Shown here: positions 1 through 3,000 of the stretch, piece after piece
Layout of the letters: each line of letters opens with the position of its first letter
Position numbering within the stretch: position 1 is the stretch's first letter
Origin: a virus
Lineage: Duplodnaviria > Heunggongvirae > Uroviricota > Caudoviricetes
Strand: one strand, 5' to 3'
Virus record (IMG/VR): IMGVR_UViG_2541047932_000023
DNA length: 8,019 bases
Made by a program: the position numbers

Positions 1-3000
1 ATGGCGAGAAAAACACACCCATTAACCACAGTGCAGATCAAAGCAGCCAGACCAGCGCAAAAGGAGTACACCCTGCAGGACGGCGGAGGGCTTTTTCTCC
101 TGGTCAAACCGTCTGGATCAAAACTCTGGAGATTTTCCTACTACCGACCATCGGACAAAAAAAGAATATTGCTGAGTTTTGGATCGCTTGAAGATGTTTC
201 CCTGGCTGATGCCAGAAAACGCCGTAGCGAGTACAGGACGTTAATCAGTGCCGGAACTGACCCGCAGGACCACGAGAGGCAAAAAAGAGAGACAGAGGCC
301 CGAAGACAAGGGAACACGTTCGAAAATGTGGCGGCGGCATGGTACCAGGTGAAAATCAGCCAGAATCTGGCCCCCAACACGATTAAAGACATCTGGCGTT
401 CGCTGGATAAATATGTATTCCCGTTCATCGGCAACACGCCAATAGATACCCTCACCGCCCGAAGGTTCGTTGAAGTGCTTACCCCCATCAAGGAGCGCGG
501 CAACCTGGAAACACTCAAGCGGGTTTTACAGCGCGTTAATGAGGTAATGGATTACGCCGCCAACAGTGGGCTGATTGATGCCAATCCGGCTATGAATGTG
601 CGTAAGGCGTTTCCCTCACCTGTAAAAAAACATATGCCAACAATCCGCCCCGAACAGCTGCCCGAGCTTATGCAGGCTTTATCAGTATCGGCAACAGAAC
701 GGCAGACCAGATTACTGATTGAATGGCAGTTACTGACCGTAACCCGTCCCGCCGAAGCGTCATCAACGCGGTGGGATGAAATCAACCTGGACGCGAAGCA
801 ATGGACGATACCTGCCGGACGCATGAAGATGCGCAGGGATCACGTTATCCCGCTTTCCGGTCAGGCTATGGCGGTGCTGGAGGCCATGAAACCAATCAGC
901 CACCACCGCAATTACGTTTTCCCAAGTCTGAAAGACCCACAGCAGCCGATGAACAGCCAGACAGCTAACGCAGCATTGCGGCGTATGGGATTCGCTGGCG
1001 TGCTGGTGTCTCATGGATTACGCGCCATATTCAGCACAGCAGCGAACGAGGAAGGATTCGAGCCGGACGTAATAGAGGCGGCACTTGCCCACGTCGACAC
1101 CAACGAAGTTAGACGGGCATACAACCGGAGCAACTACATAGAAAAACGCATCGTGCTGATGCGCTGGTGGGGCGAATTTGTCGAGGCTGCGGCGACGGGC
1201 GTAACCCTCGCCAGTGGTAAAAGGGGTATCCGAGCCGTGTAGCTGTACAGAAAACCAGTAAAAACTACGAAAACCATGTAAAACCGTCGTATAATTGCAT
1301 CAAATTTAACGACAAGGCCGTGAAACATGAAACCGTTAAGATGCAAAAAAATATCAGATGCAATTGCGACGGGCTGCAACTGGCCCTGATGGTTCAGCAT
1401 GAATTTTGGTCAACCTACGATCCGGAGGACAGAACGACGGCCCCATCAAAAAAACAGGTAGTAGATTTTCTGGTATCCCGTGGCGCTTCCAGAAATCTGG
1501 CGGTAAGTATTGATAAGGTCGTACGTCCGGCATCTATGAAGATCGGAGGCAGGCCCAAAAAATGGCGGTAACAATCCTGGAAGCGGCAGAAATGCCGCTT
1601 TTTTTATAATTCCATTTCAAATCATCAATATAAAAAACGGTGTATACCGTTTAAAAACGGTGGGAACTGTTTTTACCCATATCCGATGATTTACCGTATT
1701 TGTCACCGGAATACACCGGATTCACAAGGTAAATCACGATGGAAGCAATCAGAAAAATTATCTTTCGCCAGGAAGTAAAAAAAATTATCCACATCAAGGC
1801 AGACAGCACGCTGCAAAGCATGATCAACGCCGGAGAATTTCCGCAGGGTTTTCGCGTTGGTTTACGCCGTCGCGGATGGTATGAGGATGATGTGTTGTCC
1901 TGGCAGAAAGAACGCGAAGAGGAAGCACGCGGAACGGCTGCTTAACGGGTATCACAGATATGACAAACACGAAAAAAGCGGCCCCGATATGGAGCCGCCT
2001 TTCTGAACAATTAACCCGCTGCGCCTTATGTGTATGTGATCCCAAACATAAGCACGGGGATGATAGCCGCTATCAGGCTGGTGGGCAATGCAATCAGTCT
2101 GGTTCAGTTCGTTGCCATACCTGCAATGAGCGCTTTTCCCTGTACTCTTTAAGGAATTGCTCAAGGGCAAAAGCACATGGCGCGAATCTTTCTGATTCAT
2201 GCTCTATCTTTCTGCGCCGTCTTTTCCGTGCCGGTGATAATGTTTTGGTCAATTCTTTATCGGTCATTGTGTTGTCCTGCATAGCAATGCGCCGTAATAC
2301 CTCACACCACGGCGCTGATAGTTTTTATCCTTTGGGTTCTATGCCGCGTTGCTGTAATTCTTTGCGGAGAACGCGTTTAATCCAAGTGGCTAAAGATGTG
2401 TCGCCATCGGCCTTAGCTGCTTCTTCTAGCTGCGCTCTGAAGTCTTCCGGTAATCGCATTTGGTATGGAGGCGAACGTTTTTCTAATGGTGTTGACATGG
2501 TAATTACCCTTCATTACTATACCCACATGGTAATTACCATTGTACTTGCCATTACACAAAAATCAACGCCCCGCAGTGCTGGGAACACATACGGGGCGTC
2601 TAACCAACAACGTAAACTAGGAGCCGTTATGGTTGCTGTAAATCATATACCACACCTTGTACACACACAAACGGCCTTTGTGTGGCGTTTTCTGGCCCTG
2701 AGTGCCGGAGAATCTCAAATCATCCACGTAACCGCCTGGACGGAACGCGAAGCGCGTAGCCGTTGCCCGTCCGGTTGTGTTGCTGTATTCGCCGCCCGTA
2801 TTCGTCAGGAGGTGTGCCATGTGCAATAAAACCACACCGGACGCAGCAGCCGCCGCGCTCACTACGCTGATGCACGCGCTTATCGATATTGAATGCACTG
2901 CAGAGCTTGCGCAGGGAGAAGAACAGAAAGACCGGACACAGTTCGTCCTGGAATGTATCCGATACACCACCACGCGGTCGCTGAATGACGCTAAAAATAT

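Follow-up and report, generated by a model that had tools for sequence, protein, structure and literature searches.

The activator AlpA is the only experimentally established regulator of the Gram-negative phage-inducible chromosomal islands (PICIs) and of their capsid-forming relatives (cf-PICIs) (PMC6092414; 10.1101/2022.09.08.507074). AlpA is needed for induction of both PICIs and cf-PICIs and its over-expression is sufficient for EcCICFT073; the founding paper on the Gram-negative islands calls a global repressor there "unclear". In Staphylococcus aureus pathogenicity islands (SaPIs) and Gram-positive PICIs the master repressors Stl and Rpr, whose genes adjoin the integration module and diverge from the replication/packaging operon, are inactivated on binding a helper-phage protein (PMC6092414). 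Here we analyzed an 8,019-nt stretch of DNA, the IMG/VR record IMGVR_UViG_2541047932_000023 of a virus assigned to Caudoviricetes (the whole stretch is called the window below), and in particular a small gene on its minus strand at 2325..2498 (ATG start, stop codon included) that encodes the 57-aa protein MSTPLEKRSPPYQMRLPEDFRAQLEEAAKADGDTSLATWIKRVLRKELQQRGIEPKG and occupies the same island position as the Stl and Rpr genes. An earlier note, made from the sequence alone, had located this open reading frame (ORF), which lies under a 60-aa cutoff, exactly. We propose that the product is probably an autoregulating Arc-type ribbon-helix-helix (RHH) repressor that would control the icd-like/replication/packaging operon of a cf-PICI-type satellite, and regard it as a good candidate for the so far undescribed repressor of Gram-negative PICI-type islands. 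No RHH or Arc-like repressor of Gram-negative PICIs or cf-PICIs was found in the literature searched; a paper on a "repressor" of EcCIMP1 was set aside, as it concerns a PerC/ANR-like protein and not the 57-aa gene.

Stl and Rpr are larger helix-turn-helix proteins, whereas the protein described here is a 57-aa RHH protein without detectable homology to either, and the integrase gene faces the repressor gene instead of being co-oriented with it. Arc and Mnt of phage P22 are, like the 57-aa protein, small RHH proteins (about 53-57 aa). In the immI region of P22, the operator is situated between the −35 and −10 elements of a strong promoter facing an opposing promoter, and a downstream gene has its ribosome-binding site covered by the short antisense sar RNA; the same operator and promoter arrangement, and likewise an antisense RNA, are predicted in the window. 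The two systems differ in several respects. The 57-aa protein is only ~18% identical to Arc and falls under the Pfam Arc cutoff, and its gene is transcribed away from the proposed target operon, like mnt but unlike arc, which is the first gene of Pant. The target in P22 is an antirepressor, whereas here it would be an icd-like gene followed by replication and packaging genes, and P22 is a phage whereas the host element here is a satellite. The protein is of a known kind, like P22 Arc or Mnt, and it is in the PICI/cf-PICI context that it may matter.

The 57-residue gene and its protein family

Among 5.8 billion clustered proteins searched, 93 homologues of the 57-aa protein were found, the large majority of them 56-58 aa long and mostly 55-98% identical to it. 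The homologues are spread over the Gammaproteobacteria (Enterobacterales, Pasteurellaceae, Orbaceae, and Aeromonadales), with hosts in Escherichia, Salmonella, Enterobacter, Yersinia, Xenorhabdus, Photorhabdus, Serratia, Pectobacterium, Pantoea, Gilliamella, Pasteurella, Aeromonas, and Oceanimonas. For a codon test, 27 unique 57-codon genes out of 72 fetched loci were aligned without gaps. Variation was found at 53 of the 57 third codon positions, at 32 first positions and at 22 second positions; the proportions of synonymous (pS) and nonsynonymous (pN) differences in the repressor frame were 0.708 and 0.145 (pN/pS 0.205), and all other frames were worse. We concluded that the 57-aa ORF is a genuine gene under purifying selection.

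The start signals bear out the ribosome-binding site and the promoter claimed in the earlier note. A Shine-Dalgarno-like GAAGGG (2512-2507, minus strand) is present 8 nt before the ATG, overlapping the edge of the first predicted operator (O1, see below), and its AGGG/GGG is retained in relatives; what had been called a good ribosome-binding site is acceptable but not strong. The plausible promoter of the note can be kept with another −10 element: the candidate sigma-70-like promoter P_L on the minus strand consists of TTGATT (2566-2561), a 16-nt spacer and TACAAT (2544-2539), matches the consensus at 9/12 positions and has a predicted start at ~2532. Its −10 sequence, TAnAAT directly before the second predicted operator (O2), is also found in clade-1 relatives. 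TATAGT (2521-2516), probably the hexamer that the note had in mind, was set aside as the repressor −10, because the leader would be only ~11 nt long and the hexamer is better explained as the opposing −10 in reverse complement. The repressor transcription unit ends with an intrinsic terminator at 1972..2004 (minus strand; 14-bp stem, then six U), which is weaker on the plus strand (folding free energy, dG, −14.0 vs −21.7 kcal/mol on the minus strand). A GC-rich hairpin of 7-11 bp (2292-2318, minus strand; GCGCCGT...ACGGCGC; dG −16.9 kcal/mol), without a U-tract, follows the repressor stop codon, ahead of the next ORF.

Membership of the 57-aa protein in the RHH superfamily, as an Arc-type member, is supported because independent lines agree, no single score sufficing. 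Profile hidden Markov model searches against RHH families did return matches, which bears out the Arc-like assignment of the earlier note: PHROG 228 ("Arc-like repressor") matched residues 6-55 at E 1.5e-6, two orthologues (P0004 and P0011, 86% and 82% identical) exceed the Pfam Arc threshold with 21.3 and 22.0 bits, and 30/73 family members match Pfam Arc at E <0.1. An hhalign comparison of the family profile with P22 Arc placed residues 8-35 in register with Arc 6-33 at ~18% identity, pairing QYQMRL with Arc QFNLRW and Q11/Q13/R15 with Arc Q9/N11/R13. The strand-helix-helix pattern proposed in that note is present as well. The predicted layout, a strand at ~11-16 (QYQMRL), helix A at 18-31, a tight turn (G32-D-T-S35), and helix B at 36-50 followed by a conserved tail (R51-G-I-E-P-K-G57), is that of the ~45-residue RHH domain, and the AF2 monomer model contains helices 18-31 and 36-50. 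The turn G32-D33-T34-S35 has the G-x-(S/T/N) form that caps helix B, with G32 and D33 conserved in ≥90% of 73 homologues; among the same homologues R15, one of the alternating strand residues that would read bases, never varies, and Q11 and Q13 are each kept in ≥90%. When the family profile was searched against PDB sequences, only designed helical repeat proteins (compositional matches) and AmrZ at E 1.1 were found.

Predicted operators, promoters and antisense RNA

Two operators are predicted next to the repressor start codon. Within O1 (2497..2510; ATGGTAATTACCCT), positions 2499-2508 form a perfect 10-bp palindrome, GGTAATTACC; O1 adjoins and also takes in the repressor ATG (GGTAATTACC-ATG), and it falls within the spacer of the candidate early promoter P_R. 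O2 (2527..2540), 30 bp from O1, is a perfect 14-bp palindrome, ATGGTAATTACCAT, which holds the second GGTAATTACC copy (2529-2538) and overlaps the −10/+1 region of P_L and about +1 to +14 of P_R. The two GGTAATTACC copies in the window compare with 0.17 expected (two matches in 2/200 shuffles), and no further copy was found in the window with one mismatch allowed. P_R, on the plus strand, is composed of TTGACA (2492-2497), a 17-nt spacer and TACTAT (2515-2520), with 10/12 matches to the consensus and a predicted start at ~2527; its −35 element is the reverse complement of repressor codons 1-3 (ATG TCA Axx).

Conservation of these sites was counted over 44 unique upstream regions. The P_R TTGACA is exact in 40/44 and a −10 with at least 4/6 matches is found in 38/44; the O1-O2 spacing is 30-31 bp in 29/44, and O1 abuts the ATG in relatives. 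ATGTCAA is retained in 47/51 loci whatever the third residue, and the Ser2 codon is always TCA. The operator sequence varies together with the predicted DNA-reading strand: in most loci with the motif KRSP(Q/P)(Y/F)QMRL the operator is GGTAATTACC, KTDQYQ(I/L)RL pairs with TGTAATTACA in 10/10, and KRSPQFPMRL pairs with GG(T/C)(A/G)TATACC; a Q13-to-P change coincides with a change of the operator core from AATT to TATA. This covariation is the best available in silico evidence that the protein would read these sites.

P_R would drive an operon whose first gene is icd-like (2629..2829, plus strand; 66 aa, with its own ATG and a GGAG at 2620-2623); its product matches NCBIfam phage_ICD_like above the cutoff (E 6e-18). 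The labels of this protein conflict, since the phage families closest to it in PHROG (phrog_1743, phrog_6196) are labeled transcriptional repressor and NCBIfam calls it a host cell division inhibitor. Within the ORF, a terminator-like hairpin on the plus strand (2664-2684; CACACAAACGGCCTTTGTGTG followed by GCGTTTTCTG), which overlaps the −35 region of the antisense-RNA promoter described next, might be an attenuator.

On the minus strand, the element at 2553..2634 reads as a predicted cis-antisense RNA of ~80 nt (~2634 to ~2556) that crosses the start codon and Shine-Dalgarno sequence of the icd-like gene. Its candidate promoter (TTGTGT 2670-2665, 17 nt, TATGAT 2647-2642, minus strand) is under the promoter-scan threshold. 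The outer stem of the RNA would be GCCA/UGGU; its other parts would be a small hairpin with an anti-Shine-Dalgarno loop, the single-stranded TGGTTAGA and a terminator stem. All relatives conserve the terminator hairpin (2600-2565, minus strand), which lies upstream of P_L, abuts it and is followed by the U-tract TTGATTTTTGTG. As RNA the hairpin is much more stable when read from the RHH-sense strand than from the other (mean dG −27.2 vs −19.3 kcal/mol; lower in 48/50 loci, Wilcoxon p 1e-9), which indicates G-U pairs on that strand; the consensus structure of a 28-sequence alignment has many G-U pairs and shows compensatory changes in 14/21 pairs. A TAnnnT hexamer is found exactly 7 nt before a conserved A(G/A)CCAT in 37/40 unique loci. 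A(G/A)CCAT lies antisense to the ATG(G/A)CT or ATGGTT of the first gene, and the DNA around it, coding on the other strand, is non-homologous. An Rfam scan of the whole window with E up to 1 gave no match, C4 and isrK included, and hence the window contains no C4 or isrK immunity RNA; such C4- or isrK-type RNAs have been reported in the "Bro zones" of PICIs (PMC10111431). The P1 immI region (c4 RNA-icd-ant) and the P4 CI RNA also place an icd-like first gene under RNA-mediated control, as predicted here, with the difference that the RNA predicted in the window is a true cis-antisense RNA on the opposite strand, alongside a protein repressor. The ~80-nt RNA, apparently undescribed so far, appears to be a second, post-transcriptional layer of control.

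Proposed role of the repressor and rival explanations

We propose the following mechanism. RHH dimers, probably as dimers of dimers (a tetramer per palindrome) as in Arc, would occupy O1 and O2, with the paired N-terminal strands (Q11, Q13, R15) entering the major groove of both palindromes. Because O1 lies in the P_R spacer and O2 at the P_R start, occupancy would block this near-consensus promoter and silence the rightward icd-like/replication/packaging operon; because O2 also lies on the P_L −10/+1 region and O1 over the start codon, the repressor would limit its own synthesis. The facing promoters P_L and P_R would be in competition for RNA polymerase, and the antisense RNA across the icd-like ribosome-binding site would add a second, translational lock. 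As to derepression, our guess is that AlpA-driven read-through from the left, over the terminator at 1972-2004 with its weak plus side, might run antisense through the repressor gene. The gene has the position of a PICI master repressor, beside the integration module, with a divergent operon and with predicted operators on the promoter of that operon, and the role of master regulator raised in the earlier note is plausible from this operator and promoter layout.

Several observations weigh against this proposal. The window protein itself scores 14.3 bits against Pfam Arc (PF03869; cutoff 20.4) and 18.7 bits against NCBIfam YlcI_YnfO_N (NF041551; residues 14-51, E 0.0014; cutoff 30), and the N-terminal strand is not formed in the monomer model. 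The P_L match is modest and less clear in clade-2 relatives, and four loci (L036, L056, L061, and L064) deviate from the canonical operator layout. Moreover, published work has shown that over-expressing AlpA is enough to induce these islands and that cf-PICI capsids are able to form with no helper present, so that any repressor must be leaky or overridden.

The last two facts somewhat favor a different role, in which the protein would be a CopG-like copy-number controller that, with the antisense RNA, throttles the replication genes after induction and leaves AlpA as the sole on/off switch. The molecular mechanism is the same and only the biological role differs. The controlled operon does hold DUF4222, a RepA helicase or primase, and SSB, and an RHH protein combined with an antisense RNA over the ribosome-binding site of the first gene mirrors the copy control of plasmid pMV158 by CopG and RNAII; CopG, however, is co-transcribed with repB from the promoter that it represses whereas the gene here is divergent, and pMV158 is a plasmid whereas the element here is an integrative satellite. 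Since the operon leads on into packaging and capsid genes, the perfect P_R −35 with two operators over the core and start site suits a tight off-state, and the module, like a phage immunity region, is exchanged as a cassette, we regard copy-number control as an unlikely, though serious, alternative to the master-repressor role.

An antitoxin function, which the earlier note had offered as an option, is far harder to defend. Many RHH proteins are antitoxins, the fold matches of the 57-aa protein include VapB, MazE9, ParD2, HicB, and PrpA, and some databases label homologues "HicB family"; a small co-oriented ORF downstream (2094..2282, minus strand, 62 aa), in the same transcription unit and with the terminator in common, could then be the toxin of a type II toxin-antitoxin pair that autoregulates only its own operon. 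This ORF probably starts at the ATG at 2267, giving 57 aa, with AGGA 7 nt upstream, and its product contains a basic stretch, ARKRRRRK. It is, however, not part of the conserved module: it is found in 4/76 loci, all close E. coli relatives, its 36 homologues occur only in E. coli and Shigella, elsewhere alpA or int comes directly next (a convergent alpA in L077 and L078), and it also stands beside the alternative YlcI/YnfO cassette of locus L003. It has no Pfam or NCBIfam match and resembles no toxin family, matching only PHROG 21027 of unknown function (E 1.6e-15). The 57-aa protein itself has no toxin-binding extension, because only 7 residues follow helix B (which ends at residue 50/57), and its predicted operators are on the opposing operon's promoter. 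With no conserved partner gene, the toxin-antitoxin explanation was rejected as very improbable.

To the notion that the 57-aa ORF is a chance or shadow frame and the true gene a 289-aa plus-strand ORF (1960-2829) spanning the whole repressor gene in the window, where 289 codons are open, pN/pS over the overlap is lowered (0.40) and the RefSeq annotation pipeline (PGAP) sets a plus-strand "Icd-like, incomplete" pseudogene over the 57-aa gene (L001, L002, and L004), we give next to no credence, because the openness and the intermediate pN/pS are accounted for by wobble positions in common with the minus-strand gene, stops interrupt the plus frame in 6/27 unique relatives and its open extent differs widely from locus to locus, the minus frame has the lower pN/pS and homologues that are in large majority 56-58 aa long, and the Icd-like domain lies only in the last 66 codons, with their own GGAG and ATG, which form a gene of 64-77 aa in other loci (64 aa in L077). 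As a unit the 289-aa ORF is artefactual: it prolongs the 66-aa icd-like gene upstream, in frame, through a wobble-sharing shadow frame of two minus-strand genes; the RefSeq Icd-like pseudogenes appear to derive from it.

The host island, its relatives and their annotation

The window, an E. coli island, carries int (1-1242), an alpA-like gene (1739-1945), the minus-strand unit of repressor, small ORF, and antisense RNA (2094-2670), DUF4222 (3272-3571), a RepA-type helicase (3568-4977), SSB (5426-5836), terS (to 6933), and from 7096 onward the N-terminal part of an HK97-like capsid gene, inside which it ends. Gram-negative PICIs and cf-PICIs are laid out in this way (cf. PMC6092414; 10.1101/2022.09.08.507074; PMC10111431). 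A cf-PICI is defined by int, alpA, a replication module, terS, and HK97-type capsid genes of its own in the absence of tail and lysis genes; of these features the window, up to its end in the capsid gene, shows int, an alpA-like gene, RepA, SSB, terS, and the partial HK97-like capsid gene. In L077 (E. coli) SSB, capsid, protease, and portal follow the primase. The RHH gene of L077 and of L078 (Pasteurella multocida) has the same position: it converges on alpA and diverges from small ORFs, which are followed by DUF4222 and the primase in that order; in E. coli and Pasteurella it is always found between int/alpA and the divergent replication operon, and in Pectobacterium directly beside int. The module region is matched in 681/5426 complete E. 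coli genomes, with 326 of these matches covering 80% or more of the region, and the O157:H7 islands next to roxA (L004) carry the repressor gene. A relative of the 57-aa protein occurs in only 4/50,697 phage records, the best being a 15-kb "phage" that resembles a satellite. Photorhabdus loci L037-L041 contain two paralogous RHH gene copies ~1.2 kb apart (about 3620-3943 and 4836-5159) with GGTATATACC-type operators, and in L072-L076 the RHH gene is reduced to a 27-aa C-terminal remnant. Compared with the O26-type sister islands, the window has ~580 bp fewer (window ~2830-2990 vs L001 3576-4290; the L001 match takes 1984 bp of record for 1401 bp of query), and the absent segment holds an "ash family" pseudogene along with another icd-like gene.

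The flanks are identical in sister island L003, but in place of the repressor gene with its operators and the neighboring hairpin there is a bona fide YlcI/YnfO-type RHH gene (NF041551; 60.6 bits) with its own repeats. The two proteins share the pattern of strand, helix, DGxS turn, and helix, and hhalign between the 57-aa family and the L003 protein gave a probability of only 4.5%; the L003 gene differs further in having three direct GTGTCAGCCAC repeats where the window has two palindromes. By analogy with phage immunity regions, such a swap is the behavior of an immunity cassette. The L003 cassette (L003 2543-2900) is equivalent to window ~2320-2600, with a different but equivalent terminator hairpin; the hairpin at 2292-2318 is situated at its left boundary, and the right-hand boundary is at GGTTAGA, inside the predicted antisense RNA.

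The description of the gene as unannotated was only partly right, because the exact protein is already in public databases: it stands as "hypothetical protein" on at least 1000 contigs (GenBank drafts), and two orthologues carry the name "Arc family DNA-binding protein". It does hold for RefSeq, where PGAP omits the 57-aa gene from the near-identical islands in the complete E. coli genomes inspected. There the spurious wrong-strand "Icd-like" pseudogene hides the repressor gene, and gene-content surveys of satellites will therefore miss it.

Gram-negative PICIs and cf-PICIs are widespread gene-transfer agents, and the 57-aa protein provides a concrete, testable repressor candidate for the EcCIEDL933-type islands, which are an established experimental system, the gene itself being confirmed in the O157:H7 islands of L004. 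More tentatively, and with more doubt than confidence, the Arc-like protein and the antisense RNA could together form an immunity system, of a sort not described in the literature searched, of a large PICI/cf-PICI subfamily that includes the islands of enterohaemorrhagic E. coli O157 and O26: a modular, swappable repressor/operator cassette would silence the island, and AlpA would override it, for example by read-through that passes antisense over the repressor gene and on into the early operon. If true, this would answer why the Gram-negative islands seem to be without a master repressor.

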